A stretch of 64,000 nt of DNA from the NCBI GenBank assembly GCA_041657955.1, contig JBBABA010000001.1, forward strand, positions 40,578 to 104,577, written 5' to 3'. Origin of the DNA: Thermoplasmata archaeon. Its GTDB lineage: Archaea; Thermoplasmatota; JASEFT01; JBBABA01. Below, piece after piece: positions 6,677 to 37,983 of the stretch. Under the pieces are notes generated by a model that made no database searches, was not told where the DNA came from, and was given only the letters and a program-made list of their open reading frames with translations. The translations under genes and the position numbers were made by a program. The first letter of the stretch is position 1; every line of letters starts with the position of its first letter.

Positions 6677-7162
6677 ATGGGCGTATTCAGCAAAAGAAAA
6701 AAAGACGACAACAAAGAAACAAAAGACAGTAATAAAGAGGCAAAAGACATTAATAAAGAAACAAAAGAAGAAAAAGAAACTCCTCAAAGGCGCAGAGTCT
6801 GGGGGATCAAAGAAAAAACATTAAAATTAATATTAGAAGTCTCGAAAGAAAGTTACCCGAATGAGTTTGCAGGTTTGCTGCGAGTTAAAAAAGGAATCAT
6901 AAGTGAATTGATCCTCCTGCCAGGGACGTTTTCCGGCGAAGATAACGCTATTTACCATCTTCACATGCTGCCTATCGACCTGAGCATAATCGGCACTGTC
7001 CACAGCCACCCGTCCGGAAACAACAGGCCGTCTGGCGCGGACCTGGCCCTGTTCAGTCATTATGGCAGCACACACATTATAGTGGGCACACCCTACGATA
7101 CGAGGTCTTGGAAAGCGTACGATACTGCTGGGAATTTGATACAATTGGAAGTCGTTGCATAA
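6677..7162 (+). CDS. JAMM/MPN-family metalloprotease (Mov34-like) with lysine-rich N-terminal tail
   Basis: JAMM motif HSHPSGNNRPSGAD (HxHx7SxxD). Confidence 0.75.
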   Translation: MGVFSKRKKDDNKETKDSNKEAKDINKETKEEKETPQRRRVWGIKEKTLKLILEVSKESYPNEFAGLLRVKKGIISELILLPGTFSGEDNAIYHLHMLPIDLSIIGTVHSHPSGNNRPSGADLALFSHYGSTHIIVGTPYDTRSWKAYDTAGNLIQLEVVA

Positions 7163-7294: not shown

Positions 7295-9049
7295 TTAGGT
7301 TTTTCTCTTCCTTAACGCGCATGAACAGATACCGACAAGCGGCAAAAGCAACGCAAATTCAAATCCGGGTATGAAGAAACTATCTACCTGCCCGGTCTTT
7401 ACGACTATAGAATCCTTTCCTTCTTTGCCAGAATCGTCAATCACCCTGAATACTGCGCGGTAGACACCGTTTTTTGGATACGTGTAATACACTTCTCCCG
7501 TGGTTGTGGAGTTCCAATCATACATGCCGTCGCCGTCAAAGTCCCATTGATAGTAGATTATTTTTCCGTCGGTGTCCGTGCCTTCGCCGTAGAAATGTAT
7601 TGTTGTGTTTCCTCCGACCGCTATGTCTCTCCCTGCGTTTGCGACCGGCGGTTTCTTGTTCGGATCAAGGTCGCCTATGATTATAGGAATTTTTGATGTA
7701 TCCGCGCTTATTGTCCCTTCGTTGTCCATTACTCTCAGCGAGGCTTCGTATCTCCCGCTGCGGGTGTATGTGTAGCGCGCACTTGGTAAAGTGGTCCATC
7801 CGCTATCAGTGCCGTCGCCGAAAATAAAGATGTATTTTTCAACAGCGCCGTCATTGTCCGTAGATTCCAAGCCATAAAAAGTAACAGATTTTCCTACATC
7901 GGCAACTACCGTATTCACTGTCAGCACGGGTTTCGGTCTTTGATTTGGATACTTCAAGACTTTGCCGCTGGTGCCGACGATTAGGGCATAGCCATTGTAA
8001 TCGCCGCCATACTCGCCCGTATATGGCCTCCAGGATACGGAGTACAAATCCATGTCCATTTCCGTGGATAGTGTTTCGATCGAGCTCTCGTTGCCGTATC
8101 TCAGTACGGTTCCCTTTTCTCCGACAATAATCGCGTATTCGCCGTCCGGTTTCCAGGAAATCTTGGTTAACTGCGTATTTTTCCATGCTACATCCGCATA
8201 TTTTGTTGAATCTACAGCTGTTTTTGTCTTGTAAGTGTTGCCGTCGTATTTCAGTATAACACCCCTGCTGCCCACAATGATCCCGTAATCGTCGTTTGGC
8301 CTCCAGGATATGCTTTGCAGCCAACTGTAACCCGCGGCAGCATCTATATTATACGAAATGTCTGAAAAACTGCTGGAGTAGTATCTCAATACAGTTCCGG
8401 AGTAACCGACACAAACAGCGAACGTGCCTCTTCTGCTCCATGCGATGCCGTGTAAATCGTCTGTCGTACCACTCTTAAACGATAGGTTTTGCACTTCTAC
8501 ACCATTGTATGTAAGCACAGAGCCGCTGTAGCCTACAATCATAGCATAAGTGCCGTCAGGAGACCAGGTAATGCTTCGCAACATGCTGCTGGTTCCGTTT
8601 TTAATAAACTCGCTTGAAAGATTCGTTATAGTGTCTGTCGCATTATCGTATCTCAAGATTGCTCCAAGATAGCTCTTCGCCTTATAGTCACCTACAATCA
8701 GCGCATAATCTTCGTATGGCGACCATGCAACATCATACAAATCGAAGTTCGAGTAATTGACAGATCCGTTTACCGTGGTGAACGCGCTACCATCATATTT
8801 CAAAATCGTGCCGTTGTTGCCAACGACCAGCGCGCAACTGCCGTCGGGTTTCCATGAAACTCCCCGGAGTGTATTTGTTGTCCCCGTGGAGATGACTGCT
8901 TTGTTGTCATAATCTACGAACGCCAAATCATTGTTATCCGCACGAACTGGTACTGTACTCAATAGTGGTGTCAGTATGAAAGTAAGTACGATCGCCCCTG
9001 CGAGCAGTCTTTTTTTCATGTTAATTTCTTCAGCCGCTTCCTTTTTCAT
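7295..9049 (-). CDS. surface protein: PD40-like beta-propeller repeats + PKD domains + PGF-CTERM anchor
   Basis: signal peptide (probable start at M11, 9019); ~8 repeats of W-x-PDG-x-YA-x-IVG; two PKD-like segments; C-terminal ...IPGFEFALLLPLVGI...RKRKT. Confidence 0.7.
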   Translation of the reverse strand: MKKEAAEEINMKKRLLAGAIVLTFILTPLLSTVPVRADNNDLAFVDYDNKAVISTGTTNTLRGVSWKPDGSCALVVGNNGTILKYDGSAFTTVNGSVNYSNFDLYDVAWSPYEDYALIVGDYKAKSYLGAILRYDNATDTITNLSSEFIKNGTSSMLRSITWSPDGTYAMIVGYSGSVLTYNGVEVQNLSFKSGTTDDLHGIAWSRRGTFAVCVGYSGTVLRYYSSSFSDISYNIDAAAGYSWLQSISWRPNDDYGIIVGSRGVILKYDGNTYKTKTAVDSTKYADVAWKNTQLTKISWKPDGEYAIIVGEKGTVLRYGNESSIETLSTEMDMDLYSVSWRPYTGEYGGDYNGYALIVGTSGKVLKYPNQRPKPVLTVNTVVADVGKSVTFYGLESTDNDGAVEKYIFIFGDGTDSGWTTLPSARYTYTRSGRYEASLRVMDNEGTISADTSKIPIIIGDLDPNKKPPVANAGRDIAVGGNTTIHFYGEGTDTDGKIIYYQWDFDGDGMYDWNSTTTGEVYYTYPKNGVYRAVFRVIDDSGKEGKDSIVVKTGQVDSFFIPGFEFALLLPLVGICSCALRKRKT

Positions 9050-9110
9050 ATAGCGTCTCCTTTTTGCGCACTCCGATAAAGTTATGAACCGACGAAATAT
9101 TAAACTAACC

Positions 9111-10889
9111 TCATTCCCTTTTCATAAACGAACCCTTCGGGAGGATTTTGTGGATTCTGTTTTGGATTTTCTTTTTTGCCGCATCAACAAATAGAATCAG
9201 CGAAACAATGCATAAGAGCGCAAGAATATCAAAGGCGGGTAGGAACCATCCTCCAGTTTCGCCGGCCTCTACGATAACCGTGTCCTTTGCGATGCCCCCG
9301 TTGTTATCAGTTACTCTGAAAACAGCACGATATGTACCGTTCTTTGGATAAGTATATGCTGCATTTCCCGTAGTTGTAGAATTCCAATCATATTTGCCGT
9401 CGCCGTCGAAATCCCATTGGTAGTAAACAATTCTTCCATCGGCGTCTATTCCCTCACCATAAAATTGTAAGCTTTTGCCACTCATTACCTTAATGTCCGG
9501 TCCTGCCTTGGCGGAGGGAGGTTTGTTGGTCGAATCTACGACTCCGACGATGACGGGTATTACCGCAACATTTGTGCTATATACATCCTTGTCGTCCCTG
9601 ACCCTAAGCGACGCGTTGTATCTTCCGACTGTATCGTATGCGTGGGTGGTCGCTGGATTGGCCATCCATCCGCTGTCAGTACCGTCACCAAACTCAAAAC
9701 AATATTGCCGAACGGCTCCGTCCGGGTCTCTTGAGTTGTAGCCATAGAACGTAACTATTCGCCCCTGGTTTGTCACCACGTCGTCAATAGTAATTTCTGC
9801 GATTGGCCTCTGATCTGGATACCTAAGCACCAAACCGTCGGTACCTGCTATAACCGCATAGCTCCCATTATACTCCCAAGACACACTGTGTAGGTCGGAA
9901 CCTATCTGCGTAGAAAGAGTTTCAAATTGGACAGGAAGAGACTCGTTGTATTTTATGACGAGCCCGTTGTCTCCCACTATGAGGGCGTATCCTTGGTATC
10001 CGTCCAAATCCGGGCGTTCGTCGGGCTTCCAAGCGATATTTCTCAATGTAGTAAATCTCCCAGCGCCTGCGTATTTTGTTGTGAATATTGTGCCGTCATA
10101 CTTAAGGATTGTTTCGTGTGTGCCGAGTATAAGTGCATATTCCCCGTCCGGGGACCATGTTACAGCCAATAGATCTTGGTCCGTCCTTCCTAGTAGTTCT
10201 ACACCACTCGTGAGGTTTGTGAATTCCTTATTTTTATCGTCGAATTTTATGACAGTACCCTTGTTCCCGACAATTAGTGCATAGCTGCCGTCTGGTTTCC
10301 AAGCGACGCTGGACAAATAAACGGTTTTGTCTTTTATAAACGTGAATCTCGTCTGGTTGTTGTCTGTCCTCGATGGATCAAATGCGGAGATGTGCCCCTC
10401 ATCGCCGACAAGCAGGGCGTAGCTGCCGTCGGGTTTCCATGCGGCGCCACGAATCGTGTTCGGGGTGTCGTGGGTGATAGGCACGTAAGAAACATTTGTG
10501 AGATTGCTGCCATCGTATCGGTATATGGAACCGTACTCCCCAACAATTAGCGCGAAGTCGCCCTGCGGTCGCCATGCTACTGCGTGCCAGTTAAACGCGA
10601 CGCCGAGATCGACTGGGATAAATCCGTTGTCCGTGCATTTTAGCACAGTCCTATCTCCAACAATGAGCCCGTACCTTGCCTTCGGTTTCCAATCTACTGC
10701 ATTGAGTGTTCTGTTTGTATTTGTGGGTGGCAAGGTCGCATCCAGAGGTTGAACACTGTAATGCACAACAAATGCAGGTCCATTGTCGTTTTGGGCACAA
10801 TTATTTGTAGGCAAGAAATTCAAAATCAGCAAAAGCATAACGAAGACGGCAAATATCGACGGTGTTTTTATGAACTTTTCCATTTTCAA
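9111..10889 (-). CDS. surface protein paralog: PD40-like beta-propeller repeats + PKD domains + PGF-CTERM-like (PAF) anchor
   Basis: same architecture as 7295..9049; C-terminal LPAFDILALLCIVSLILF followed by basic tail. Confidence 0.7.
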   Translation of the reverse strand: MKMEKFIKTPSIFAVFVMLLLILNFLPTNNCAQNDNGPAFVVHYSVQPLDATLPPTNTNRTLNAVDWKPKARYGLIVGDRTVLKCTDNGFIPVDLGVAFNWHAVAWRPQGDFALIVGEYGSIYRYDGSNLTNVSYVPITHDTPNTIRGAAWKPDGSYALLVGDEGHISAFDPSRTDNNQTRFTFIKDKTVYLSSVAWKPDGSYALIVGNKGTVIKFDDKNKEFTNLTSGVELLGRTDQDLLAVTWSPDGEYALILGTHETILKYDGTIFTTKYAGAGRFTTLRNIAWKPDERPDLDGYQGYALIVGDNGLVIKYNESLPVQFETLSTQIGSDLHSVSWEYNGSYAVIAGTDGLVLRYPDQRPIAEITIDDVVTNQGRIVTFYGYNSRDPDGAVRQYCFEFGDGTDSGWMANPATTHAYDTVGRYNASLRVRDDKDVYSTNVAVIPVIVGVVDSTNKPPSAKAGPDIKVMSGKSLQFYGEGIDADGRIVYYQWDFDGDGKYDWNSTTTGNAAYTYPKNGTYRAVFRVTDNNGGIAKDTVIVEAGETGGWFLPAFDILALLCIVSLILFVDAAKKKIQNRIHKILPKGSFMKRE

Positions 10890-18930: not shown

Positions 18931-20232
18931 ATGGCAAAACAAAATTATGAAGATATGCAACGCAAGCGCGCGAACATGCAAAATCAAGCCCGAAACCGCC
19001 TGACGCATCCAGTAAACGACATATGGGAAACAAAAAGCCAAAAACTGTCTGGAAAAGCCATCGTATTGGGAGTAACTGGAAGCATCGCCGCTGTCGAAAC
19101 AGTAAAGCTGGCGCACGAGCTCGCAAGACACGGCGCAGACGTATGGTGCGTGATGAGCCGCCCGACTGCAAACATCATACACCCGGACGCGCTGGAATTC
19201 GCGACAGGGCACCCCGTGATTTTGGAAATCACAGGTCAGACCGAGCACATATCTTTGTGCGGCGACACAAAAAGAAAGGCAGATATACTTCTTATCGCCC
19301 CCTGTACCGCAAACACGCTGTCAAAAATCGCGTGCGGGATTGACGACACGCCTGTAACGACATTCGCGACAACCGCGATAGGATCCGACATACCGATTCT
19401 CATCGTGCCTGCCATGCACGCATCCATGTATCGCCATCCGATTGTAAAAGAGAACATGGAAAAACTGCGAAAGTACGGGGTAACAATAATAGAACCAAAA
19501 ATCGAGGAAAACAAGGCAAAGATGATGGATGTTGATGAGATTGTTGCAAACGTCTTTAGACGCATCGGAAAAAATGACATGGCTGGAAAAAAAACACTGA
19601 TAATCTCGGGGTCGACCGAAGAGGAAATCGACGACGTCAGGGTGATAACGAACCGGAGCACGGGAAAGACGGGGATTGAAATCGCAAAGGTTGTCTTCGA
19701 ACGCGGCGGCAATGTCACGCTTCTATGCGGGGCAAGCTCAGAAAAACCGCCGAGGTATATTCAGACAGAGAGGTTTTCCTCAGTAAAAAATTTAATGGAT
19801 ACACTAAAAAAGACGGATTTGCATAAATATGATATAATAATCATTCCCGCCGCAATATCCGATTATACTGCAAAGAAGCAAAAAGGAAAAATATCCTCTA
19901 CGAAAAAGAAAATTTCATTGGAGCTAACACAAACGCCAAAGGTTGTGGACTTCATAAGAAAAACATCGACGGCATACCTCGTTGGGTTTAAGGCAGAGCA
20001 CGGGATACCCGAGAAGGAACTGATCGACCGCGCATACGGGCGGTTAAAAGATATGGGCATGGACTTGATAGTAGCCAACGATATTTCGCTTACGACACCA
20101 GACGAAAACGTGGTTTTCATAATAGACAAAACCAAAAAAACCAAAAAAGTTGAGGGCAAAAAACAAAAAATCGCGGAAGAGATAATCGACACCATAGTCG
20201 AAAATGTAAAAAGTATCGGTGGTGGGAGCTGA
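18931..20232 (+). CDS. coaBC: bifunctional phosphopantothenoylcysteine decarboxylase / phosphopantothenate-cysteine ligase
   Basis: flavoprotein N-domain (IVLGVTGSIAA) and CoaB C-domain; start may be a downstream Met. Confidence 0.85.
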   Translation: MAKQNYEDMQRKRANMQNQARNRLTHPVNDIWETKSQKLSGKAIVLGVTGSIAAVETVKLAHELARHGADVWCVMSRPTANIIHPDALEFATGHPVILEITGQTEHISLCGDTKRKADILLIAPCTANTLSKIACGIDDTPVTTFATTAIGSDIPILIVPAMHASMYRHPIVKENMEKLRKYGVTIIEPKIEENKAKMMDVDEIVANVFRRIGKNDMAGKKTLIISGSTEEEIDDVRVITNRSTGKTGIEIAKVVFERGGNVTLLCGASSEKPPRYIQTERFSSVKNLMDTLKKTDLHKYDIIIIPAAISDYTAKKQKGKISSTKKKISLELTQTPKVVDFIRKTSTAYLVGFKAEHGIPEKELIDRAYGRLKDMGMDLIVANDISLTTPDENVVFIIDKTKKTKKVEGKKQKIAEEIIDTIVENVKSIGGGS

Positions 20233-20233
20233 A

Positions 20234-21172
20234 ATGACGACTATGCGACGCAAGGCGTTTGCACCCGGCCACATCAGCGGTTTTTTCCAGATATGCAGAA
20301 ATTCCAGGAATTTAGAAAAATACGGCTCCCGTGGAGCAGGCATCTGCATTAATAAGGGGGTAACTTCTGCCGTGGAAATTAAAGAGAGCGACGCTCAAGC
20401 AATCCGTGTATTTATAAATGGAAAGGAAAGTGCCGCCGAGGTCACCAAACAGGCAATAAAAAATCTCATCTCTGCAGGATCAGCATATAATAAAAAAACG
20501 AAGCAGAAGGGCACAAAAACCCAACCGCCCGACTCGAAATACAGCATCACGATCAACACCGCTCTCGAACTGCCGGTCAGCCAAGGGTTCGGCTTGAGTG
20601 CAGCCGGTGCTTTAAGCGCCGCACTCGCGACAGCATATGCACTCGAACTGAAATATCCAAAGACCGAAGCAGTATCTGCCGCGCACAAAGCAGAGATAGC
20701 ATGCGGAACTGGTTTGGGTGACGTGGTTGCCGAAGCCACCGGGGGTGTAGTGTTCAGGCGGGAACCAGGCATACCGCCGCACGGTGTTGTAGATAGGATA
20801 GACAGCGACAGTGATGTTGTCCTTTGTGTGGTTGGCGAGGAGATATTGACAAAAGACATAATCCTCAACGCAAAGCACATAGAACGCATCAACGACAGCG
20901 GCGAGAGGTGTATGATTGAGTTCCTTGCAGATCCAACAATCGCAAACTTCTTTGAGGTTGCGTATAAATTTACCTTGGAAATCAAATTGATGTCTTCGCC
21001 AGTCATAAACGCGATAAACGAGGCGCGCAAATACGGCGCGGCAAGCGCGTGCATGCTCGGAAACTCTGTTTTTGCGATGGGGGACGTCGATAAAATGACA
21101 AACACCCTCAAAGAATACGGCGAAGTCTATCTGTGCGAGATAGACAAGGACGGAATGAGGGTTTTGACATAA
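20234..21172 (+). CDS. pantoate kinase (archaeal CoA pathway, GHMP-kinase family)
   Basis: AFAPGHISGFF N-terminal signature; ATG 2 nt after the coaBC stop. Confidence 0.7.
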   Translation: MTTMRRKAFAPGHISGFFQICRNSRNLEKYGSRGAGICINKGVTSAVEIKESDAQAIRVFINGKESAAEVTKQAIKNLISAGSAYNKKTKQKGTKTQPPDSKYSITINTALELPVSQGFGLSAAGALSAALATAYALELKYPKTEAVSAAHKAEIACGTGLGDVVAEATGGVVFRREPGIPPHGVVDRIDSDSDVVLCVVGEEILTKDIILNAKHIERINDSGERCMIEFLADPTIANFFEVAYKFTLEIKLMSSPVINAINEARKYGAASACMLGNSVFAMGDVDKMTNTLKEYGEVYLCEIDKDGMRVLT

Positions 21173-22582: not shown

Positions 22583-22654
22583 GCGGCTGTAGTCTAGTGG
22601 TTAGGACTGGAGCTTCCCAAGCTTCAAACTCGGGTTCAAATCCCGGCAGCCGCA
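22583..22654 (+). tRNA. tRNA-Gly (anticodon CCC)
   Basis: acceptor GCGGCTG/CAGCCGC; anticodon loop TTCCCAA; T-loop GGTTCAAATCC. Confidence 0.85.
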
Positions 22655-22960
22655 CATCAACCAACAGAACCAATTAACAGTGATAGGATTTGAACCGAAG
22701 GTGTTGGAAAATTTTTAACTAATTATATTGAAATTTTTTAACTGAGTGGTATAAAGCACCTCTACATCAAATCCCGACAACCGCACATTGGCTGATAGAA
22801 CTAATTTTAACAGTGGCGGGATTTGAAAATGCGACGAACAAATATCATAACATCGCATGGCTCTGAAAAATTTTAATACACATTGTAGAAATTTTTCACT
22901 CCGAAGGAGAAACCCCGGCAGCCGCACATAAAACTCGGGGCAGCGCATACCCCGCGCATA
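22655..22960. repeat. degenerate copies of the tRNA-Gly 3' half (T-arm + acceptor), direct and inverted; att-site-like remnants
   Basis: TCAAATCCCGGCAGCCGCACAT (tRNA end) recurs as CATCAAATCCCGACAACCGCACATTGGCT (~22768) and CCCCGGCAGCCGCACAT (~22913); inverted GGATTTGAA arms at ~22686 and ~22816. Confidence 0.6.
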
Positions 22961-22976: not shown

Positions 22977-23543
22977 TCAGAGCGAATCGCCGCGCAACGA
23001 TACCCTTCTTGTAATTTCGCGAAGCAAACGCGAAACCTCTTTTTTTACATAACACGATTCGAGTATCCCAAATATCTTGTCGGCATTGCCCTTGTCGGTT
23101 TTGATTGTGCCGACATACGAGTTGTCCCCCAATTTCGCCCAAATGAGATATGTATCGTCAACAACAATGATCGGGACAGATAAGCGATAAATTGAGGACA
23201 ACCTATAGTTCGAATGCTCCTTCCAGAGTTTCTCCTCCTCCACCAAATTTTGCTCAAATATTGTTAACCGACCCTCGAATCCTATTGTTTTATCTTCAAA
23301 AAACTCGTCTCGTGTGTATGTATACGAATATAATAACAAACACGAACCTCCTTTTCCAACAACACGGCGGATACTATCCTTAGATATCTCCGCAAACTGT
23401 TCTCTATGTTTTTTGTCGGGAGACCGCGTGTCGCAGAGGAGTGATAACGAATTTTGAAATGCCCCTATCCTTTTTTGTGCTTTTTGTACTTCTGCACCAA
23501 TATATTTGTAAACTTCCTCTTCACAATCGATAAACTCAACCAT
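22977..23543 (-). CDS. hypothetical protein
   Basis: 188-aa ORF between the tRNA-derived repeats and the SRP RNA; no motif recognised. Confidence 0.5.
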   Translation of the reverse strand: MVEFIDCEEEVYKYIGAEVQKAQKRIGAFQNSLSLLCDTRSPDKKHREQFAEISKDSIRRVVGKGGSCLLLYSYTYTRDEFFEDKTIGFEGRLTIFEQNLVEEEKLWKEHSNYRLSSIYRLSVPIIVVDDTYLIWAKLGDNSYVGTIKTDKGNADKIFGILESCYVKKEVSRLLREITRRVSLRGDSL

Positions 23544-24251: not shown

Positions 24252-25373
24252 ATGATTATGAACGACATAAGAATGAACAAACTGGCAAAAAACCTGATCA
24301 ACTACTCGGTTAGATTGAAAAAAGGCGAAAAAATATTGATAGAAACTTTTGACATACCGCCCGAATTCGTGAACGAATTGATAAAAGAAACGGTTGCGGT
24401 CGGCGGCACACCTATAGTCGAGTTGAAAAACAATTTGGTGTTAAGAGAACTTTACAAGAACGCTACCGAGAAAGGCATGAAGATTATCGGCGACTATGAA
24501 TTATATCGAATGAAGAAGGTAGACGCATATATAGGCGCGAGAGGGAGCTTCAACATCTCCGAGATGTCGGATGTTCCAATGGAAAAAATGAAGTTGTACC
24601 AAACACACTGGCTTAAACCCGTGCACCTCCAGCAGCGTGTTCCGCACACAAAATGGGTGGTCCTCAGATGGCCGACGTCTTCAATGGCGCAGCAGGCAGG
24701 CATGAGCACGGAAGCGTTTGAGAATTTCTATTTCGACGTCTGCACCATGAATTACAGCAAGATGTCAAAGGCCATGGACTCGTTAAAATCCTTAATGGAA
24801 GAAACAGACAAAGTACAAATAAAGGGCCCGGGCACAGACCTCAGATTTTCGATAAAAGGCATACCTGTGATAAAATGCGACGGGAAGCTGAACATTCCGG
24901 ACGGCGAAATATTCACAGCACCGGTTAAGAACTCCGTAAACGGCGTTATGACATACAACACACCCACCATATACCAGGGCACGGCGTTTGAAAACATAAA
25001 ACTGAAGTTCAAGAACGGGAAAATAATTGAAGCGACAGCGTCGGACACGGCAAAGCTGAATAAAATACTCGACTCTGACAGCGGAGCCCGCTATATCGGC
25101 GAGTTCGCACTCGGGGTAAACCCGTACATAACCCGCGCAATGAAGGACATACTGTTCGACGAGAAGATAATGGGGTCTTTCCATCTGACGCCCGGCAACT
25201 CATACGACGAGGCAGATAACGGAAATAAATCAGAAATACACTGGGACATGGTCTGCATCCAGACAAAAGAGTTCGGCGGCGGAGAGATATATTTCGACGA
25301 CATGCTTGTAAGGAAAGACGGAATGTTTGTCGGAAAGAAATTGGAATGCTTGAACCCAAAGAATCTGAAATGA
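24252..25373 (+). CDS. M29-family aminopeptidase (aminopeptidase T / AmpS-like)
   Basis: 373-aa ORF; family-typical C-terminal segment HLTPGNSYDE...EIHWDMV. Confidence 0.8.
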   Translation: MIMNDIRMNKLAKNLINYSVRLKKGEKILIETFDIPPEFVNELIKETVAVGGTPIVELKNNLVLRELYKNATEKGMKIIGDYELYRMKKVDAYIGARGSFNISEMSDVPMEKMKLYQTHWLKPVHLQQRVPHTKWVVLRWPTSSMAQQAGMSTEAFENFYFDVCTMNYSKMSKAMDSLKSLMEETDKVQIKGPGTDLRFSIKGIPVIKCDGKLNIPDGEIFTAPVKNSVNGVMTYNTPTIYQGTAFENIKLKFKNGKIIEATASDTAKLNKILDSDSGARYIGEFALGVNPYITRAMKDILFDEKIMGSFHLTPGNSYDEADNGNKSEIHWDMVCIQTKEFGGGEIYFDDMLVRKDGMFVGKKLECLNPKNLK

Positions 25374-26276: not shown

Positions 26277-29200
26277 ATGGCAGGCAAATCATTGTGCCAA
26301 AAGCATTATATCTCAGTAGCAGCGTATTTTATAAGTGGCATGCACGAATCAAAAATAAAGACGCAATTAAGCGCAATGTTTGTTGCATCGATACTAGCTA
26401 TATCTGTGCTTGTTGTTAGCGTTAGCTATATCTCCATATCTATGTCTATAAAAAATAGCGATGAGAAAAGAATTGATTTTTATGATGTAAACGGAAACAA
26501 GATAGAAGACGTGTTGGAGAATGTTGTTGCAAACAAACAGGAGAACGAAACCGTAAAAGCGATAGTTTCATTCAACAACAAGGACAACAACCATCACTTG
26601 AACGATTTTGAAGCTATAGGCGCAAAAATTTTGTTTGATTATCAGATAATAAACGGAATTGCCATAGAGCTTCCTTGCAATAACCTGACAAAGATACCAA
26701 ATATTGGGGATGTAGAATACGTCGAGCTCGACCGTGAGTATCGCATCCAATATAATGAAAATGATGCCGAGCTAGACCGCGAATACCGCACCCTGCTTAA
26801 TGACAAAGTCCAGTTGATAGACGCTGACCCGCCCACACTTCAAAAGTATGGTTATGGAGATATCACGGGATGGGGCGTAACAATCGCAGTCATAGACACC
26901 GGAATAGATCCAACCCACGAATCACTAGATGATATGGACGATAACCCTGCTACAACTGACCCAAAAGTTATCGGCTGGTATGATAATGTAAACCATAGGA
27001 CATCTGCTTATGACGACCAAGGGCATGGAACACATTGCGCTGGGATATGTGCGGGCACAGGAGGGCCATCACATACATACCGGGGTGTAGCTCCGGGGGC
27101 GAAATTGGTCGGCGTTAAAGTCATGAACAGCCAGGGTGGTGGCACAGAAAGCACGATGATTGACGGCCTAAACTGGATTATAAACAATAAAGGCAAGTAT
27201 AACATAAGAGTAATCTCGATGAGCTTGGGGCTGCCTTATTATATGGCGGCTATGGCTGGGATGCCATTAAACGGAAAGTCGACCATCGACAAGGCCGCAA
27301 CTGCCGCAGTAAACGCGGGGTTAATATTTGCCGTGGCTGCGGGTAATTCTGGCCATATGGATGTGCAGGGAAACCGCCTAATAGTTACAGAACCGCTTAA
27401 AGAAACCATAGGCCCGCCCGCTACATGCGAAGATGTGATAACTGTTGGAAGCAATTTTCTTTCCGGGAGTGACACGGGCGTAGATTTTTATTCCAGTAGG
27501 GGGCCGACATCGGACGGCAGAACAAAGCCCGACGTCGCGGCACCTGGTACAGACGTAATGGCTCCAAACGTCAACACCAAGACCGGTTATGTAAGGCACT
27601 CTGGCACCTCGATGGCCTGCCCAATGGTTGCTGGTTCTGCAGCGCTTGTTATAAATTATTATCTGAATGCTACGAAAGGGTATGAAAATTACTATCCGCA
27701 AACGACGGGGGGGCTCCCAATGCCTACAAACGCACAGGTAAAAAAACTTCTAGGAGAACTCACGGCAATCGACCTTTTTCCATACAGCGAACCAGGTAAG
27801 GATAACGACACAGGCTGGGGGTTGATAGATGTAAGCGAGGCAATGAACGCAATAAACTTTTTACCTATCGCAAAGGCAACAGCTAACACCACAACCGCGG
27901 TTGCCGGTGAAACAATAACTTTTACGGCTAAGGACACAACAGACATAAACGGTCCAAGGTCACGAGCTGTTTATATGTGGGATTTCGGAGACCAGTATGC
28001 GGACCCGGCAACAAACCCGAATAAGGATTGGTACATGAACACGAGCCACAAATTTACGCGCGGCGGCACGTACACAATAACACTGACAATCACAAACATC
28101 AAGGAAGCCACCTACAGCGAACCAGACGATTTTAAAAAGGCCAACACATGGGACGTCGGGGTTTCAGGCATCAACACCAAATCGATTCAAATAACGATTC
28201 TAAACAGCCCTCCGGTCGCTGTTATAAACAAAGTGAATTTCGCAAGCGACATTGTTCCGACAAATCAGCAGACTTCTTTCGACGCATCGCAATCCTATGA
28301 TAATGACACGAGCACTCCAAACAATCCTCTGCAGTATAAGTGGGCATTTGGGGACGGTTCATCTACTGATTGGGCAAGTTCGCCTACTGCACAGCACACG
28401 TATGTGACCAAAGGCACATACAACGTCGTCTTAACAGTGAAGGATGATGCCGACGCCACGGCCACAGACACCATGACACTAAAGGCGACGAGTCCTCCAG
28501 CCGCAGTACCCGGGCCTAGTCAAACCGTTAAGACAAACGAAGTTGTTTATTTTAACGGTACAGGAACAGACAGCGACGGCTCGATCGCCAAATATTTGTG
28601 GGATTTCGACGGCGACGGCACGTATGATTGGGAGTCTACAACCACAGGAAAGACAACGCATACTTACCAGCACAAAGGAGCGTATGACGCCGCCTTTAAG
28701 ACAATAGACGACATGGGCGCAGAAACAATCACCAAGGTAAAAATAAACATCGAAAACACGCTGCCTGTGCCGATAGTTAAAATAACGAAATCGAACGTTA
28801 CTTACCCAGGCGACACCGTACGTTTTGATGCATCCAGCTCTTACGACACAGACACCCACACACAGCAAAACCCAATATCATTCAAATGGATATTTGGCGA
28901 CGGTGCGACCTCTACCGACGCAGCCACCAACCACATCTATCAGGACAACGGCATATATAATTTGACACTCCAAATAACCGATGACGATTTTGGAATTACA
29001 ATTTATCGACAAAATTTAACAATACTGAACAAAAAACCCATAGCGACAATAGACGAGAATACGCGCCTGACAAACATAACAACAGCAAACAGCGGAGAAG
29101 AGATTTTATTTACATCGCCTAGCGCGTACGACCCTGACACCCATACGCCAAGCGCCCCGATAACTTACCAATGGGACTTCGGCGATGGGAATATCGGATA

Positions 29201-31058
29201 TGGCAAAAATGCAAGACATATTTTTGCGCACAAGGGCAACTATCTCATCAACCTGACAATACTTGACGATGACAACGAAAGCGCAGAAGTCAACCTCACA
29301 ATAAATATCACAATAAATAATAGAAAACCAGCTGTCGACACAGCAAACATCACACAGATGGCGAACATCACCGAAATAACAAGCGGTCAATCAATATCTT
29401 TTACGGCTCCAAACGCAACAGATATAGATACCCACGCATCAGGCAATCCGATAATTTACCAATGGAACTTCGGCGACGGGTGCATAGAGATTGGTAAAGA
29501 AATCGCACACACTTTTGCGCACGGCGGCAATTACAATGTTGTTCTAACAATACTTGACGATGACAACGAAAGCGCAGAAGGCAATTTCACAACGAATGTT
29601 ATTGTAAATAATAGAAAACCAATAGTTAATGTGACTGATACCACGCAGATAGTGAGCGCAAGCGAAACAAAAAGCGGACAATCGATAGCATTTACAGCGC
29701 CGAACGCAACAGACCCCGACACTAACACATCAGATAATCCAGTAACTTACCTATGGGATTTCGGCGATGGAAGTACTAGTGCGGAGAAAACCCCAAATCA
29801 CACCTACAATAAAAGCGGCTTCTTTAATGTGACATTGAAGATAATCGACGATAGTAACGAAACCGTAGTTAAATACATACCAATCCAGATATTAAACACG
29901 CCCCCGCTAGTCAGTAATGTGAGCGCGCCGAAGGCGGGGGACGCAGGCAAAGGACTTTCTTTTGCCGCAAATTGTGCGGATGCCGACGGGGCGATCGTGG
30001 ATTACATATGGGATTTCGGCGACGGCACAACCGAAAAAGGTTCCGAAGTTACCCACGTGTATAAGCGAGGAGGCGCGTACACGGTTACGTTAATCGTTAC
30101 AGATAACGAAGGGGGCGTGACGAACACAACCACAACAGTCAACGTCAGCGGGACGATTGGGGATGTTATCGGTATACCTCTAGATGGAGTCACACTCATT
30201 CTGTTTATTGTGCCGATTATTGTCCTGGTGTGTGTAGCAGTAGTCTATTCTAGAAGACGGGGAAAACGAAAAGAGAAGGAAGCACCGGAAGAAGAGAAAC
30301 CAAAAGAAACACCGGAATCAACAAAAGGAACTGCAGCAACACAAATGTTGGGTGGTGTAGATGGGCACAATGAAAGTTTACCACTTCCAGGGTACCCCGC
30401 GGGAGAGCGGCAGCAAACAGGATATCCCGCATACGGACAGACTGATGCCCAAGCGGCGGATGCTGGGTGGCGGCCGCAGCATATACCGCCGGCACAACCA
30501 GGATATGGAAGTGAAGAAGCAATAGGAAGAGAAACGCAACAGGCACCGGTAGGGCCAGAAGGAAGAAAATCTGTTTATGATGCATACGGCCAGCAGCTAG
30601 ACGCGAGAAAATCCGCGAAACCTGCGGCAACGGCTACACAGACAAGATGCCCCAAATGCCGTTACTCCATATTGGTCACATCGCCCGAGAGGCCAATCAA
30701 GGTGCACTGCCCGAAGTGTGGCACAGTGGGCATATTAAAACAAAAACCAACACAAAAAACACCCGTACCAGAGCAACGCTACGAAACGCCTCCGAGAAAA
30801 CCCGCGCTGGGGACGGTGCAGAAACAGGCAGAAAGACAGCATGGCTATGAACAGCCGCCCGCAAAAAAATCCATACTGGATGGGATGAAGAAAGGGCCGG
30901 AAGGAAAACCTCTTGTAAAAAAACAATCACAAACTAGCACCAAAAACTGTCCAAGATGCCAAACACCAATAGTTATAACCCAGAGCACAAGACCGCTTAC
31001 TATAACCTGCCCGAGTTGCGGGCTTTCATGCGTTCTGCGCAAACAAAAAACCTTATAA
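26277..31058 (+). CDS. secreted subtilisin-like serine protease (S8) with ~8 PKD-like domains, C-terminal TM helix and cytoplasmic tail with two zinc ribbons
   Basis: catalytic triad motifs VIDTGID, HGTHCAG, GTSMACPMVAG; repeated WDFGDG PKD cores; TM LILFIVPIIVLVCVAVV; tail with two CPxC-x17-CPxC ribbons; start may be Met22 or Met34. Confidence 0.85.
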   Translation: MAGKSLCQKHYISVAAYFISGMHESKIKTQLSAMFVASILAISVLVVSVSYISISMSIKNSDEKRIDFYDVNGNKIEDVLENVVANKQENETVKAIVSFNNKDNNHHLNDFEAIGAKILFDYQIINGIAIELPCNNLTKIPNIGDVEYVELDREYRIQYNENDAELDREYRTLLNDKVQLIDADPPTLQKYGYGDITGWGVTIAVIDTGIDPTHESLDDMDDNPATTDPKVIGWYDNVNHRTSAYDDQGHGTHCAGICAGTGGPSHTYRGVAPGAKLVGVKVMNSQGGGTESTMIDGLNWIINNKGKYNIRVISMSLGLPYYMAAMAGMPLNGKSTIDKAATAAVNAGLIFAVAAGNSGHMDVQGNRLIVTEPLKETIGPPATCEDVITVGSNFLSGSDTGVDFYSSRGPTSDGRTKPDVAAPGTDVMAPNVNTKTGYVRHSGTSMACPMVAGSAALVINYYLNATKGYENYYPQTTGGLPMPTNAQVKKLLGELTAIDLFPYSEPGKDNDTGWGLIDVSEAMNAINFLPIAKATANTTTAVAGETITFTAKDTTDINGPRSRAVYMWDFGDQYADPATNPNKDWYMNTSHKFTRGGTYTITLTITNIKEATYSEPDDFKKANTWDVGVSGINTKSIQITILNSPPVAVINKVNFASDIVPTNQQTSFDASQSYDNDTSTPNNPLQYKWAFGDGSSTDWASSPTAQHTYVTKGTYNVVLTVKDDADATATDTMTLKATSPPAAVPGPSQTVKTNEVVYFNGTGTDSDGSIAKYLWDFDGDGTYDWESTTTGKTTHTYQHKGAYDAAFKTIDDMGAETITKVKINIENTLPVPIVKITKSNVTYPGDTVRFDASSSYDTDTHTQQNPISFKWIFGDGATSTDAATNHIYQDNGIYNLTLQITDDDFGITIYRQNLTILNKKPIATIDENTRLTNITTANSGEEILFTSPSAYDPDTHTPSAPITYQWDFGDGNIGYGKNARHIFAHKGNYLINLTILDDDNESAEVNLTINITINNRKPAVDTANITQMANITEITSGQSISFTAPNATDIDTHASGNPIIYQWNFGDGCIEIGKEIAHTFAHGGNYNVVLTILDDDNESAEGNFTTNVIVNNRKPIVNVTDTTQIVSASETKSGQSIAFTAPNATDPDTNTSDNPVTYLWDFGDGSTSAEKTPNHTYNKSGFFNVTLKIIDDSNETVVKYIPIQILNTPPLVSNVSAPKAGDAGKGLSFAANCADADGAIVDYIWDFGDGTTEKGSEVTHVYKRGGAYTVTLIVTDNEGGVTNTTTTVNVSGTIGDVIGIPLDGVTLILFIVPIIVLVCVAVVYSRRRGKRKEKEAPEEEKPKETPESTKGTAATQMLGGVDGHNESLPLPGYPAGERQQTGYPAYGQTDAQAADAGWRPQHIPPAQPGYGSEEAIGRETQQAPVGPEGRKSVYDAYGQQLDARKSAKPAATATQTRCPKCRYSILVTSPERPIKVHCPKCGTVGILKQKPTQKTPVPEQRYETPPRKPALGTVQKQAERQHGYEQPPAKKSILDGMKKGPEGKPLVKKQSQTSTKNCPRCQTPIVITQSTRPLTITCPSCGLSCVLRKQKTL

Positions 31059-31110
31059 ACACATAATATATTAAAGCGGACTCTATATAAATAAAAATAG
31101 GAGAATTGTT

Positions 31111-31884
31111 ATGGATGAAATATCACTAGCAGTTGGAGTAATAGGGCTAGTCGTGGGGCTAGTTGCGTTGTTGATAGTCTATCTCCAAGTTATACAAAAA
31201 GCCCTGCCTTCCTTGAGAAATAACCTGACCACAACTAACGAAAGACTCGACAGGTTCGAAGCGGTCCTTACGCAAAAGACTGACTTTACGATAGATGAAT
31301 TGTTTGAATCGATAAAAACATCCACTATAATCAGGGAAAGAATCGCCGAGGGGCTGGAAGAGAACACATATACGATCGAGGGCGGAGACCAGATTTTCCA
31401 GAAAGCGCTCTCCATGTTGAGGGACGCAAAGAAGAGCATATTGTCAATCTGGTGTTTGCCGAGCGAGGAGCCGCCGAAATGGTATAGCGAAACCATAGAA
31501 GAAAAAATCAAAGAAGGCGTGCAGATCACCCGCCTGATGAACCTCAGAAATCCTGCGATACGGGCCAATGCTATAGAGTTGATGAAGAAATTCTACAATG
31601 TAAAGAATTTCGCCATATATCACACAGATCAAACAAGTTCGGAAACAATGATAGTGGACGACAGGCAGGCGATTATTACATTCCCGACCGCGGAACAGAT
31701 CTCGAACATCAATTCTGCAGTATACACCGACAACCAAAAGTTCGTAAACGCAATCAGGGCATGGTACCAGCAGTACATATATACAGAAAAGAACAGGATC
31801 AAGAGCGTAAACGACATAATGAAGTATTCTGAGCAGGCGAGCAAAACAGCAGAAGCAACAACAGAGACAAAACCGGCAGAGTAA
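31111..31884 (+). CDS. membrane-anchored hypothetical protein
   Basis: N-terminal TM helix; 257 aa; immediately downstream of the S8 protease. Confidence 0.45.
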   Translation: MDEISLAVGVIGLVVGLVALLIVYLQVIQKALPSLRNNLTTTNERLDRFEAVLTQKTDFTIDELFESIKTSTIIRERIAEGLEENTYTIEGGDQIFQKALSMLRDAKKSILSIWCLPSEEPPKWYSETIEEKIKEGVQITRLMNLRNPAIRANAIELMKKFYNVKNFAIYHTDQTSSETMIVDDRQAIITFPTAEQISNINSAVYTDNQKFVNAIRAWYQQYIYTEKNRIKSVNDIMKYSEQASKTAEATTETKPAE

Positions 31885-31978: not shown

Positions 31979-33220
31979 CTAGCCAATTAGCAGTGCGGCA
32001 TATACCTTCGCATCGTTTAGCATGTTTTCAATAACACAATATTCATTCGGCGTGTGCGGCACTTCGTCGAGCTTCGACCAGACAACAGCATCAAATCCGG
32101 CTTTTCTAAACATTGCGGCGCATGTGCCCCCTCCTATGCCGCCGACATAGGGCTCGTTTTTGTAAACTGTTTTAATCGCGGTCTTCAGGTTGGTCACAAT
32201 CCATGAGTTTTGGCTTGTGGGCGGCGCCGCAGGCTCGTGATTTGCGGCTCCTATTTTCATCTTTACATTGAACTGCTTTTCATATTTGGATGCGAGGTCT
32301 GTCACAGTCTTCAAGACGTCGTCGGTTTTGTATTCGGGAAGGATCCTCATGTCCATATAGAATACGTCGTCTCCTGGTATTGTGTTAACGTTCGGTACGT
32401 TAGCCTCTTTTTTCGTAGGCTCGAATGTAGATACTGGGGGGTCGAACAGCGTGTTTTTTGCATTATACTTCGAGTACAACAAGGTATCAAGTTCGTTTGC
32501 AAATTTTATTGCTGTCTTAAACGCATTTATGCCCTTCTCAGGCGTGCTGCCGTGCGTCTGCTTCCCCTCTGTAGTCACTTTCAGCCACATGATCGATTTT
32601 TCCGCAATCTCGATTAATGTGCCTTGTTCGTTCCCGCCGTCAGGCACTATAAAGAAATCCCGGTTATGCTCGAATATTCCCTTGTTCACGATATGCTTTA
32701 TTCCATATTTGCTGCCTGTCTCCTCATCAGCAACAAGCGCGAGGCCGACGTCATACTTCGGCGTTATTCCCATGTCCTTCAGGATTTTTAGGGCATACAT
32801 CGCGGCAACCATTTCCTGGTTGTTGTCCTCAGTGCCTCTGCCATATACCTTCCCGTCCTTTACCACAGGTTTAAACGGGTCGCTGTTCCATTTTTTCATA
32901 TCGCCTGGAGGAACTACATCAGTGTGGCAGGCTATCCAGATCGTCTTTTCGCTGCTCTTTCCCTTCATCTTTACAACAATATTTGGTCTTATCTTCGTCG
33001 GGGATTTATCGTCAGGAGCGTCGAAATGCTGGATGTCCGTGAAACCGAACGACTTCAGCATTTTCTCCAATAAAATGACTTTTTTAGTCTCCCCTTCTCC
33101 GCCTGATCGCGGGTCTATCGCAGGGATTTTTACAAGCTCGCAAAGCGAGGAAACTATCTCGTCCTTAGATTCCTCGATCTTCGCAAAAACATCCTCTAAA
33201 TTATGCTCTGTCTTCGTCAT
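31979..33220 (-). CDS. M20-family metallopeptidase (ArgE/DapE/ACY1-like)
   Basis: His/Asp/Glu metal-site motifs (ACHTDVV, ADEETG) and dimerisation domain. Confidence 0.8.
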   Translation of the reverse strand: MTKTEHNLEDVFAKIEESKDEIVSSLCELVKIPAIDPRSGGEGETKKVILLEKMLKSFGFTDIQHFDAPDDKSPTKIRPNIVVKMKGKSSEKTIWIACHTDVVPPGDMKKWNSDPFKPVVKDGKVYGRGTEDNNQEMVAAMYALKILKDMGITPKYDVGLALVADEETGSKYGIKHIVNKGIFEHNRDFFIVPDGGNEQGTLIEIAEKSIMWLKVTTEGKQTHGSTPEKGINAFKTAIKFANELDTLLYSKYNAKNTLFDPPVSTFEPTKKEANVPNVNTIPGDDVFYMDMRILPEYKTDDVLKTVTDLASKYEKQFNVKMKIGAANHEPAAPPTSQNSWIVTNLKTAIKTVYKNEPYVGGIGGGTCAAMFRKAGFDAVVWSKLDEVPHTPNEYCVIENMLNDAKVYAALLIG

Positions 33221-36042: not shown

Positions 36043-37983
36043 TCACCGTTTACCTTTAGGTTTTCTTAACACAACATATGCGAGGATTAGGATAATTATG
36101 AGGAATACGAAAATACTTAGAATGCCCTTGGGGCTGTCAATCATACACAACTCTTCGCTGACACCTATAATTCCGGCGGCAACCAACGCGGCCACCACTA
36201 CACCGGTTATCGCCTCGCCTGCAATCAAGCCCGAGCTGAAAAGAACACCGCGGCTATAGGTCTCATCCTTTTCTGCGTTGCATTTTTCGAGCTCCTTTGT
36301 TTCAGCGCGGGTCATCCTTTCTTTCTGGGTTGTGGTGGTAAATCCAGTTTCTATCTTCCTATCCACGAAGTGTTTTATGCCGCCGCCTATCAGGATAGGT
36401 ATGGATAAGGTAAAAGGAAGGTACATGCCCACAGCTATTGCCATTACTGGTTTTCTGAGTATTATAAACAAGATTCCGAGCTCTACACCCATCAGGAAAT
36501 ACGGCCAATTCATCGTGCCTCCGAATATGCCGTTTGTCACCATTGCCATAAGACCTGCCTGGGGGGCGGGTAGGGCTTTGCTTCCAAATGTGTAAGCTGC
36601 GCTTAAGACACCGAGAACAGGGGGTATGATAATCGCGGAGACTATGACGCCGATCATCAGGGCTATCTGCAGGTTTCTGGGAGTGGAGCCCAAAAGATAC
36701 CCGGTTTTAAGATTCTGAAGGTTGTCGCCTGCTATTGATGCTGCACAACAAACTATCGCGGCTACAAGAATAGTTGCCGACGCGCCTACCGCGCTCGGCA
36801 CCCCCAGCGCTACAAGCAAAAGTGCGGTAAATATCAGCGTTGCGATTGTTACGCCAGATATTGGGTTGTTTGAACTGCCTATGATCCCTGCCATATACCC
36901 CGCTATCGCCGAGAAAAAGAATGCGGCGATGACCATGATGATCGATGTTACGAGAGCTACTGCGAAAGTCTGCAGTACATACCAATACATCAAAAAGATG
37001 CAGACACTTATCAAGCCCGCGAGAATAAACGTAAATGCAGTCGGAAGGTCCAGTTCAGTCCTGATAACCTTTTCCTTATCCTTGGACTTGCTGCCGCCTA
37101 TTACGCCTCGGACGCCTTTTGTTATTGCGTTTCTCATGCTCCATATCGCAGAAAGGCCGCCGACAATCATAGCGCCTATGCCTACATAACGTACCCGATC
37201 ACTCCACACAATTGTAAGCGCGTCTACGGGATTGTCTGCAAGCGGAAGGCCGTTAGCTAAGACTACCAACGGAACCAGGAGCATCCAAGCGATTACGCCG
37301 CCCAAAAAAACGAAAAACGCTATGCTGGGCCCCACTATGTAGCCCACGCCCAGCAGCGCAGGGGACAGGTCGCTTCCAAAATAGAAATATGCCCTGCCCG
37401 CGCCTATCGCTTGTTCGACTTTGCCGGAAAGAGCTTTCATTCCTGAAGATATAAACTTAAAAACAACCCCGATGACTAGCGCCGAAAGGACGTATGTTAT
37501 CTGCTTTCCGCCCCGCTCTCCTGCCTTAAGTATCTCTGCGCACGCTATACCCTCAGGATAAGGCAGCTTCATTTCTTGTATGAGTATCTTCCGAAGCGAG
37601 ATAGTGAAAAGTACGCCTAAAAGTCCGCCCAGCGCGGCCACAACAGATACTGTAATGTAGTCAATCTCATGCCATACTCCCATTATGAGAAGCGCGGGAA
37701 TAGTGAATATGATGCCTGCAGCGAGTGCTTCTCCGGATGATGCTATAGTCTGGGCGATGTTATTTTCGAGTATGGTACCTGTCTTAAACAATCCTTTGAG
37801 TATCGCCATGGATATTACAGCTGCCGGTATCGTCGCCGCCACTGTCATGCCCGCATAAAGCCCAAGATAGGCGTTTGCAGCAGCCATGACAACCGCTAAA
37901 ATTACGCCGAGAAGAATGGCACGTACAGTCAATTCAGGTATGGTTTTTCCTGGAGGTATATAAGGAACAAACTTCACCATCAC
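36043..37983 (-). CDS. OPT-family oligopeptide transporter
   Basis: 646 aa, ~16 predicted TM helices, OPT-family organisation. Confidence 0.8.
   Translation of the reverse strand: MMVKFVPYIPPGKTIPELTVRAILLGVILAVVMAAANAYLGLYAGMTVAATIPAAVISMAILKGLFKTGTILENNIAQTIASSGEALAAGIIFTIPALLIMGVWHEIDYITVSVVAALGGLLGVLFTISLRKILIQEMKLPYPEGIACAEILKAGERGGKQITYVLSALVIGVVFKFISSGMKALSGKVEQAIGAGRAYFYFGSDLSPALLGVGYIVGPSIAFFVFLGGVIAWMLLVPLVVLANGLPLADNPVDALTIVWSDRVRYVGIGAMIVGGLSAIWSMRNAITKGVRGVIGGSKSKDKEKVIRTELDLPTAFTFILAGLISVCIFLMYWYVLQTFAVALVTSIIMVIAAFFFSAIAGYMAGIIGSSNNPISGVTIATLIFTALLLVALGVPSAVGASATILVAAIVCCAASIAGDNLQNLKTGYLLGSTPRNLQIALMIGVIVSAIIIPPVLGVLSAAYTFGSKALPAPQAGLMAMVTNGIFGGTMNWPYFLMGVELGILFIILRKPVMAIAVGMYLPFTLSIPILIGGGIKHFVDRKIETGFTTTTQKERMTRAETKELEKCNAEKDETYSRGVLFSSGLIAGEAITGVVVAALVAAGIIGVSEELCMIDSPKGILSIFVFLIIILILAYVVLRKPKGKR

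Follow-up and report, generated by a model that had tools for sequence, protein, structure and literature searches.

A 64,000-nucleotide (nt) stretch of the forward strand of contig JBBABA010000001.1 (positions 40,578 to 104,577; Thermoplasmata archaeon, assembly GCA_041657955.1), hereafter the window, contains an open reading frame (ORF) encoding a large predicted subtilase with two putative zinc ribbons near its C-terminus. The parts of this gene and the other features discussed below are listed in Table 1, in window coordinates. A database protein from a 458,766-bp contig, 'MAG: PKD domain-containing protein [Thermoplasmata archaeon]' (P0001; MAG, metagenome-assembled genome), is 100% identical to the subtilase and is annotated as starting at Met22 (nt 26340), with a length of 1572 amino acids (aa). 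A TATA-like sequence, CATTATAT, lies approximately 30 nt upstream of nt 26340, and it is likely that Met22 is the true start and that the protein is 1572 aa long.

Hydropathy analysis revealed only two hydrophobic segments in the protein. The first, LSAMFVASILAISVLVVSVSYISI, lies close to the N-terminus and can serve as a predicted signal peptide or signal anchor for export. It is followed by a region that aligns with the Pfam model Tk-SP_N-pro at a sub-threshold score (20.5 bits against a cutoff of 26.5). In a search of the Protein Data Bank (PDB), the subtilase also matched the pro-form of Tk-SP (3afg_A; E = 2.1e-56), with an alignment that begins at residue 33 of the chain, upstream of the catalytic core, so that this region of the subtilase is a probable N-propeptide of the Tk-SP type. 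The catalytic domain itself scored far above the cutoff for Peptidase_S8 (PF00082; E = 2.6e-53, 181.7 bits, cutoff 21.8) and contains the motifs VIDTGID (aa 205-211), HGTHCAG (aa 250-256), and GTSMACPMVAG (aa 443-453), which supply the triad D207/H250/S445 in Asp-His-Ser order, along with N357 (AAGNSG) as the oxyanion residue. The N-terminal portion is thus a predicted protease, with an exported, zymogen-like S8 head. Downstream of the head, eight stretches matched PKD_4 (381 bits, E = 1.5e-116), and the core motifs of these domains, seven WxFGDG and one WDFDGDG, likewise number eight. No tandem repeat was detected at the DNA level in either the PKD array or the tail.

The second hydrophobic segment, LILFIVPIIVLVCVAVV, follows the PKD array as a single transmembrane helix, preceded by acidic residues and followed by the positive cluster YSRRRGKRKEKE. 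By the positive-inside rule, the positively charged flank of a transmembrane helix marks the cytoplasmic side, and the remaining 270 residues are therefore placed in the cytoplasm. This tail is rich in Pro, Lys, Gly, Thr, and Gln, has a net charge of +20, and is predicted to be disordered outside the two ribbons; in AlphaFold2 (AF2) models the linker between them has a predicted local distance difference test score (pLDDT) below 50. The protein does not resemble those with a PGF-CTERM anchor, as it has no PGF motif and extends 270 residues beyond the helix. The original prediction, made from the sequence of this stretch, described a subtilase with about eight PKD domains, a transmembrane helix, and a cytoplasmic tail bearing two zinc ribbons, and this arrangement was borne out by the Pfam scan, the motif positions, and hydropathy.

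Table 1. Subtilase gene, its predicted parts, and other features of the window
Feature	Coordinates	Strand	Basis and remarks
Whole ORF	26277..31058	+	Uninterrupted; 1593 codons including stop; 1593 aa
N-terminal hydrophobic segment, aa 31-54	26367..26438	+	Hydropathy scan, position
Candidate N-propeptide of Tk-SP type, aa 72-132	26490..26672	+	Tk-SP_N-pro, 3afg_A alignment
S8 catalytic domain, aa 200-466	26874..27674	+	Pfam Peptidase_S8
PKD stalk, eight domains, aa ~535-1296	27879..30164	+	Pfam PKD_4
Single transmembrane helix, aa 1307-1323	30195..30245	+	Hydropathy
Cytoplasmic tail, 270 aa	30246..31055	+	Composition, AF2
Putative zinc ribbon 1, aa 1454-1490	30636..30746	+	Sequence, AF2; CPKC-x16-CPKC, Arg-Pro at aa 1472-1473
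Putative zinc ribbon 2, aa 1554-1590	30936..31046	+	Sequence, AF2; CPRC-x16-CPSC, Arg-Pro at aa 1572-1573
257-aa protein gene	31111..31884	+	N-terminal transmembrane helix; no Pfam, NCBIfam, or PDB match
M14 carboxypeptidase	3128..6391	+	Peptidase_M14, PKD, NPCBM_assoc/FixG_C Ig-like domains; transmembrane helix at aa 955-973; proline-rich cytoplasmic tail
WD40-like beta-propeller + PKD surface protein	7295..9049	-	Paralog of 9111..10889
WD40-like beta-propeller + PKD surface protein	9111..10889	-	Paralog of 7295..9049
M29 aminopeptidase	24252..25373		
M20 peptidase	31979..33220		
OPT oligopeptide transporter	36043..37983		
C25-like peptidase	38897..41647		

The first ribbon begins 135 aa past the transmembrane helix and 12 residues follow the second, with the two CPxC-x16-CPxC cores (aa 1458-1481 and aa 1558-1581) lying 100 aa apart. 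Local alignment of one ribbon with the other yielded a BLOSUM62 score of 91 over 40 residues, compared to 25.8 +/- 5.4 for shuffled sequences, none of which reached 91 in 2000 trials (z about 12), indicating that the two ribbons are true repeats. The ribbon units of the original prediction therefore stand as real repeats, with a spacer of 16 residues in place of the 17 implied. At the DNA level the ribbons share only 53 of 111 positions (48%), and this low identity, together with the lack of a tandem DNA repeat, implies that the duplication is old and that the common residues have been retained. When the tail was modelled alone with AF2, two small beta modules were obtained, with block pLDDT values of 73-89 and a value of about 80 for ribbon 2. 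Modelling of ribbon 1 with an alignment of 56 repeats yielded a pLDDT of 81 and a fold of two hairpins (four strands) whose tips carry the CPxC knuckles. The four Cys of each ribbon would bind zinc. Both ribbons are strongly basic, with net charges of +6 and +7.

To define the distribution of this module, an exhaustive phmmer search with aa 1445-1593 as the query was run against 1.84 billion cluster representatives. At E <= 1e-3 the search returned the subtilase itself and 78 other clusters, 11 of them at E <= 1e-10, and most of the 78 contained between 2 and 10 matched stretches each. A word-indexed search with a 302-aa tail query gave zero returns, but it also missed the identical P0001, and this null result was discounted as a consequence of the low-complexity query. 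All CxxC-x16-CxxC units were then pulled from the family proteins (n = 177), and their consensus, t[IV]kCPkCxtx[IL]k[VI]tSpkRPlk[IV]xCPkCgakgtLKgK, is dominated by lysine and contains Arg (87%) and Pro (96%) at spacer positions 11-12. In an alignment of 56 non-redundant repeats (A1), the four Cys and this Arg-Pro pair (C, C, R, P, C, C) are invariant. We refer to the module as the RP ribbon, and its full signature, C-P-x-C-x10-R-P-x4-C-P-x-C together with hydrophobic residues where the strands lie, is present in both ribbons of the subtilase. As a control, the pattern C..C-x10-[RK]P-x4-C..C was sought in six frames of approximately 80 unrelated loci (1.33 Mb) that had been retrieved because they contain PKD or S8 sequences, with 0 matches; apart from the window gene, its only occurrences were in the two loci retrieved for ribbon proteins. 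That the ribbons represent more than chance follows from the 78 other clusters that bear the module at the threshold given above. Neither Pfam nor NCBIfam has a dedicated model for it, and no description of this architecture was found in the literature that could be searched. The RP ribbon is an as yet unnamed repeat module of approximately 80 protein clusters from uncultured Euryarchaeota and Thermoplasmata. Few of the family sources are named; those that are derive from 'Euryarchaeota archaeon' and 'Thermoplasmata archaeon' MAGs, and the gene orders are archaeal. In one Euryarchaeota MAG (GCA_016874675.1, locus L083), two ribbon genes (4915..6798 and 8001..10763) lie approximately 1.2 kb apart beside a family B DNA polymerase, which suggests a local expansion of paralogs.

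Within their carrier proteins the ribbons typically lie behind a transmembrane helix and at the very C-terminal end. Of 71 members with one or more strict repeats, 40 have a transmembrane helix N-terminal to the first ribbon and a single one has a transmembrane helix after it. The distance from helix to first ribbon has a median of 75 residues (range 12-580), and the medians are 59 residues between ribbons and 8 residues after the last one. Usually 2-8 tandem copies are present; the strict pattern detects 1 to 7 per protein, and up to 8 are counted when the spacing is relaxed. Roughly 30 short members have ribbons but lack a transmembrane helix, and some of these may be gene fragments. The portions outside the membrane vary: 11 members have PKD arrays, some of these, in proteins of 1900-2600 aa, together with beta-helix/NosD domains, which form the outer part of 3 members in all; others have FixG_C/NPCBM_assoc Ig-like domains or a recurrent domain of approximately 300 aa without a Pfam match. 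Among the 79 ribbon proteins, the S8 domain and RP ribbons are combined only in the window protein. Two clusters are Hsp70 proteins: P0133 (L084 4823..7093) is a full-length DnaK with three C-terminal RP ribbons, encoded directly upstream of DnaJ, and P0165 is a C-terminal fragment of DnaK with two ribbons. The ribbons of the membrane proteins are basic, with a family mean net charge of +5.9 per 42 aa, whereas those fused to DnaK are neutral to acidic and nonetheless keep the C4 and RP signature.

Based on these data, the interpretation that we favour, with modest confidence, is that the window protein is a type I membrane-anchored extracellular subtilisin whose RP ribbons act as multivalent docking modules for cytoplasmic proteins. 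Docking would explain why the signature residues are kept across very different carriers and why the ribbons hold a fixed position at the ends of flexible linkers. The fusions to DnaK imply that the module is cytoplasmic and binds something there, and, given that the DnaK ribbons are not basic, that the ligand is a specific one, which argues against purely electrostatic binding of lipid or nucleic acid. We also considered whether the ribbons might be membrane-proximal electrostatic or structural elements that fold with zinc at the inner face of the membrane, lock the type I topology, lie on anionic lipid, and give the anchor stability in the near or complete absence of a cell wall, with no specific partner. 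The net charge of the tail and the prevalence of lysine in the ribbon consensus are consistent with such a role, as is the fact that the tail stands in for the PGF-CTERM-type anchors of other PKD proteins in the window and of most S8-PKD homologs. However, an invariant Arg-Pro pair and a fixed x16 spacer over 177 repeats argue for a fold and surface that are specific, beyond charge alone, the module is also borne by soluble DnaK and by small proteins that lack a transmembrane helix, and in some members the ribbons lie up to 580 residues from the helix. We therefore regard this explanation as unlikely; were the ribbons mere charge anchors, their recognition would amount to a modest improvement in annotation.

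Comparison with known zinc modules placed the RP ribbon near, but outside, established families. Individual RP ribbons match dozens of generic zinc-ribbon models, all below their cutoffs; for the subtilase tail the scores were 22.5 bits against a cutoff of 30.3 for Zn_ribbon_4 and 18.9 against 20.9 for TIGR02098 (MJ0042_CXXC). Zn_ribbon_4 was the commonest model, matched by 29 of the 79 ribbon proteins, and relatives with several ribbons pass the Zn_ribbon_4 and TIGR02098 cutoffs on summed scores only, with 0 single stretches passing. A Foldseek search with the AF2 ribbon model returned the ZitP zinc finger (2nb9) as the top match, with a TMq of 0.68 (E = 0.32), followed by LysW. Searching PDB sequences with the A1 profile gave weak, knuckle-level matches to LysW, the zinc ribbon (ZnR) of AgmX/GltJ (7zok), RNA polymerase subunit P, and eS27. 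When the raw tail was searched against solved structures, the matches to SFPQ proved to be compositional and were set aside, and those to TFIIB and LysW were weak. The RP ribbon may accordingly be described as a putative divergent relative of the MJ0042-type ribbons, with the ZitP ZnR as its nearest fold, although curated thresholds are not reached. Like the RP ribbon with its four Cys, predicted two-hairpin fold, and predicted cytoplasmic location, the MJ0042-type ribbons (TIGR02098; Zn_ribbon_4/5; ZitP 2nb9, GltJ/AgmX 7zok) have four Cys and two beta-hairpins and reside on the cytoplasmic side of membrane proteins. The known examples differ in being bacterial and present as a single N-terminal copy with the spacing CxxC-x19-CxxC (C5, C8, C28, C31), whereas RP ribbons are archaeal, tandem, and C-terminal behind a type I transmembrane helix, with an x16 spacer and the invariant RP. 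In its signature, its tandem C-terminal use, and its archaeal distribution, the predicted tail is therefore new with respect to the known cytoplasmic-side zinc ribbons of membrane proteins.

Some of these matches raise a different explanation, namely that the ribbons bind nucleic acid, either tethering DNA, RNA, or ribosomes to the membrane or, following release of the tail by intramembrane or cytoplasmic proteolysis, acting as a transcription regulator that conveys the state of the protease domain outside the cell. The high positive charge of the ribbons, both here and in the family mean, would suit this function, and in addition to the weak profile matches to RNA polymerase subunit P/Rpo12, eS27, TFIIB, and a 'Zn-ribbon RNA-binding protein', 7 family members match Zn_ribbon_Brz, the ribbon of a haloarchaeal transcription regulator. 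All such matches are, however, at the level of the knuckles and below curated cutoffs, and the neutral to acidic ribbons of DnaK retain the C4 and RP residues. Moreover, no site-2 protease or regulator is linked to the ribbon genes in the neighbourhoods examined, and arrays of up to 8 ribbons at a spacing of approximately 59 aa on flexible linkers are unlike known DNA-binding domains. A role in nucleic acid binding thus appears improbable.

The proposal that the RP ribbons are docking modules draws on analogy with three ribbons of experimentally studied, membrane-attached proteins, where they serve as protein-binding heads. The ZnR of ZitP uses a basic patch and W35 to bind PopZ (PMC5182065), and that of GltJ recruits MglB (PMC11135422). 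In the archaeon Haloferax volcanii, FtsZ1 is anchored to the membrane by CdpC (HVO_0399, DUF7093), whose ribbon at the extreme C-terminus binds FtsZ1 and is separated from the membrane anchor by a 243-aa disordered linker; the authors of that study also reported distant multi-zinc-ribbon homologs in all classes of Thermoplasmatota (bioRxiv 10.64898/2026.07.16.738847). By this analogy we infer that RP ribbons, too, dock to proteins. CdpC resembles the subtilase tail in being archaeal and membrane-attached, with a long linker that is disordered and a ribbon at its C-terminus, and it has features of its own: its attachment is peripheral, by way of an amphipathic helix, and it combines one N-terminal and one C-terminal ribbon without any ectodomain.

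The shared logic of membrane anchor, disordered linker, and C-terminal ribbon, along with the reported homologs in Thermoplasmatota, makes it conceivable that RP ribbons bind FtsZ or another cytoskeletal polymer, a specific form of docking that would serve to localise or confine surface enzymes with respect to the division ring or a cytoskeletal lattice. We nevertheless consider this quite improbable, as there is no obvious reason for a protease, beta-helix proteins, and DnaK all to bind FtsZ, and no match to DUF7093 was found, by comparison with the family model only, for the subtilase (E <= 0.01) or for three further ribbon proteins, P0125, P0128, and P0139 (E <= 0.001). A less restrictive idea, also tentative and on the whole doubtful, is that the RP ribbons constitute an unrecognised archaeal docking system through which surface proteases, giant adhesin-like beta-helix/PKD proteins, small soluble proteins, and DnaK are all connected to one intracellular hub, for example an FtsZ-like scaffold polymer. 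The presence of the same module on approximately 80 otherwise unrelated clusters, including DnaK, does point to a common intracellular binding partner, and a hub of this kind would provide the Thermoplasmata, with little or no cell wall, with an inside-out means to organise or quality-control their surface.

Aside from the tail, the protease and its PKD part form an ordinary member of a well-known kind. The closest solved relative of the N-terminal 440 residues is Tk-SP of Thermococcus kodakarensis (3afg), which, like the window protein, is an archaeal secreted S8 protease. Tk-SP itself is secreted in soluble form, carries a C-terminal beta-jelly-roll, and has no PKD stalk, transmembrane helix, or cytoplasmic tail. 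The same combination of subtilase and PKD array is found in the archaeal S8-PKD surface proteases of Poseidoniia and Thermoplasmata MAGs, for which there were hundreds of matches, mostly of approximately 1040 aa. Most of these proteins end in a short hydrophobic anchor followed by 4-10 residues, in some cases with a PGF-like motif, and none of the homologs carries RP ribbons. Four, the nearest S8-PKD relatives with such an arrangement (L004, L005, P0016, and P0003), have a transmembrane helix followed by a Pro/Gln-rich tail of 100-165 aa without Cys, and another, P0009, has a different, short ribbon, CGTC-x10-CPSC. The tails of L004 and L005 (both from the Thermoplasmata MAG SRR26215686_concoct_192) and of P0016 are approximately 165 aa long, rich in Pro, Gln, and Met, free of Cys, and contain the motif TGMT(P/S)EQEEFFTELYG(I/V)(P/T)PQKFMQY, a separate uncharacterised conserved element.

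Returning to the docking interpretation, the N-terminal hydrophobic segment would direct export of the protein, the propeptide and catalytic domain would be held off the membrane by the stalk of eight PKD domains, and the single transmembrane helix would fix the enzyme to the cell. Peptides freed outside would presumably be imported and finished by the OPT transporter and the M29, M20, and M14 peptidases encoded nearby. In the cytoplasm, the tail would form a flexible, basic, proline-rich tether carrying the two zinc ribbons, which could link the enzyme at the surface with a shared partner or scaffold in the cytoplasm, for the purpose of positioning, clustering, or quality control.

Several observations weigh against this interpretation. 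Databases contain no ortholog of the subtilase, the best full-length matches being 28-29% identical, and the conservation of its tail is consequently judged from the wider ribbon family only; the original prediction had looked to orthologs for conserved Cys spacing, and it is instead across the 177 repeats of that family that the spacing holds. The Cys-free tails of four S8-PKD relatives imply that ribbons are not required for the protease itself. No conserved neighbour of the ribbon-tailed genes was apparent in the five contexts examined, and the analysis yielded no candidate ligand. The basic charge of the ribbons would suit the binding of nucleic acid or anionic lipid equally well. Finally, the statistical support from Foldseek is weak, as expected for a domain of 42 aa.

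Protein breakdown in sediments and waters is believed to be driven by the extracellular proteases of uncultured Thermoplasmata, and little is known of how they are attached to the cell. The type I anchor, long cytoplasmic tail, and specific zinc module predicted here would represent a mode of anchoring unlike the usual PGF-CTERM-type ends. If the ribbons do dock to a scaffold or cytoskeleton, they would offer a handle on the spatial organisation of the archaeal cell surface, and the 42-residue A1 profile would allow RP-ribbon proteins to be annotated.

The window encodes a second surface peptidase with a zinc module at its end, an M14 carboxypeptidase, and the original prediction held that the subtilase tail duplicates the tail of this enzyme. 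The terminal module of the M14 protein, C-x2-C-x12-C-x2-C-x4-H-x2-C-x6-C-x2-C, has eight ligands (C4HC3), is probably binuclear, and resembles Prok-RING_1 (PF14446; 24.8 bits, cutoff 29.1), a model that the S8 tail does not match; the S8 ribbons, by comparison, have four Cys each. When the two tails were aligned, the correspondence was limited to the CxxC knuckles, and phmmer with the M14 tail as the query recovered 0 of the 79 ribbon proteins. On these results and the eight-ligand pattern, homology between the M14 module and the S8 ribbons was rejected, and the proposed duplication does not hold. Both proteins are type I surface peptidases of one genome with a zinc module at the predicted cytoplasmic end, so that they have topology and theme in common and differ in the module. 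Considered alongside the varied tails of the S8-PKD relatives, the tails of surface hydrolases in these archaea seem to be a site where various zinc modules were added.

The gene immediately downstream of the subtilase encodes a 257-aa membrane protein that the original prediction put forward as a possible partner of the protease. Homologs 84-85% identical are present on two related contigs (L002 and L003; nucleotide identity approximately 80%), and the stretch of the window that is homologous to these contigs begins at nt 31046, 13 nt ahead of the S8 stop codon. In L002, the upstream neighbours of the homolog are divergent CoaBC and pantoate-kinase-like genes (2420..4741, adjoining the homolog), with no protease. 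In the window, 10 kb separate the 257-aa gene from the CoaBC and pantoate-kinase-like genes (18931..21172), and all three share one strand. This difference implies an inversion or rearrangement, one end of which coincides with the 3' end of the S8 gene. The rearranged segment includes a tRNA-Gly gene (22583..22655); no integrase indicative of an integrated element was seen beside it, and no repeat search was made. Approximately 55 nt before the ATG of the 257-aa gene is a block resembling a transcription factor B recognition element (BRE) and TATA box, AAAAACCTTATAAAC (31043..31060), that is kept in the window, in L002 (~4977), and in L003 (~965), and that in the window overlaps the S8 gene at its final codons and TAA stop. 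The conservation of this block and the protease-free context in L002 and L003 indicate that the 257-aa gene is an independent transcription unit whose adjacency to the protease is not conserved. At the P0009 locus, moreover, the gene downstream of the S8-PKD protease is unrelated to the 257-aa gene. A partnership with the protease was therefore dismissed. The 257-aa protein also showed no similarity to the product of a 188-aa ORF at 22977..23543.

Other genes in the window are in keeping with a proteolytic lifestyle: the M14, M29, M20, and C25-like peptidases and the OPT oligopeptide transporter around the protease fit an enzyme that supplies peptides to the cell. The C25-like protein (916 aa) has an N-terminal anchor. 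The C-terminal part of an MCM helicase (52119..54266, minus strand) weakly matches DUF5817_CT (22.5 bits, cutoff 29). RP ribbons also weakly match several haloarchaeal zinc-ribbon models, one of which is the N-terminal half of DUF5817, and the overlap with the helicase is probably coincidental. Lastly, of the two paralogous surface proteins with WD40-like beta-propeller and PKD domains, that at 7295..9049 ends in a clear PGF-CTERM-like anchor, FIPGFEFALLLPLVGICSCALRKRKT, and that at 9111..10889 has a degenerate one. Together with the transmembrane helix and tail of the S8 protein, these ends indicate that at least two modes of anchoring are used for PKD proteins in this genome.

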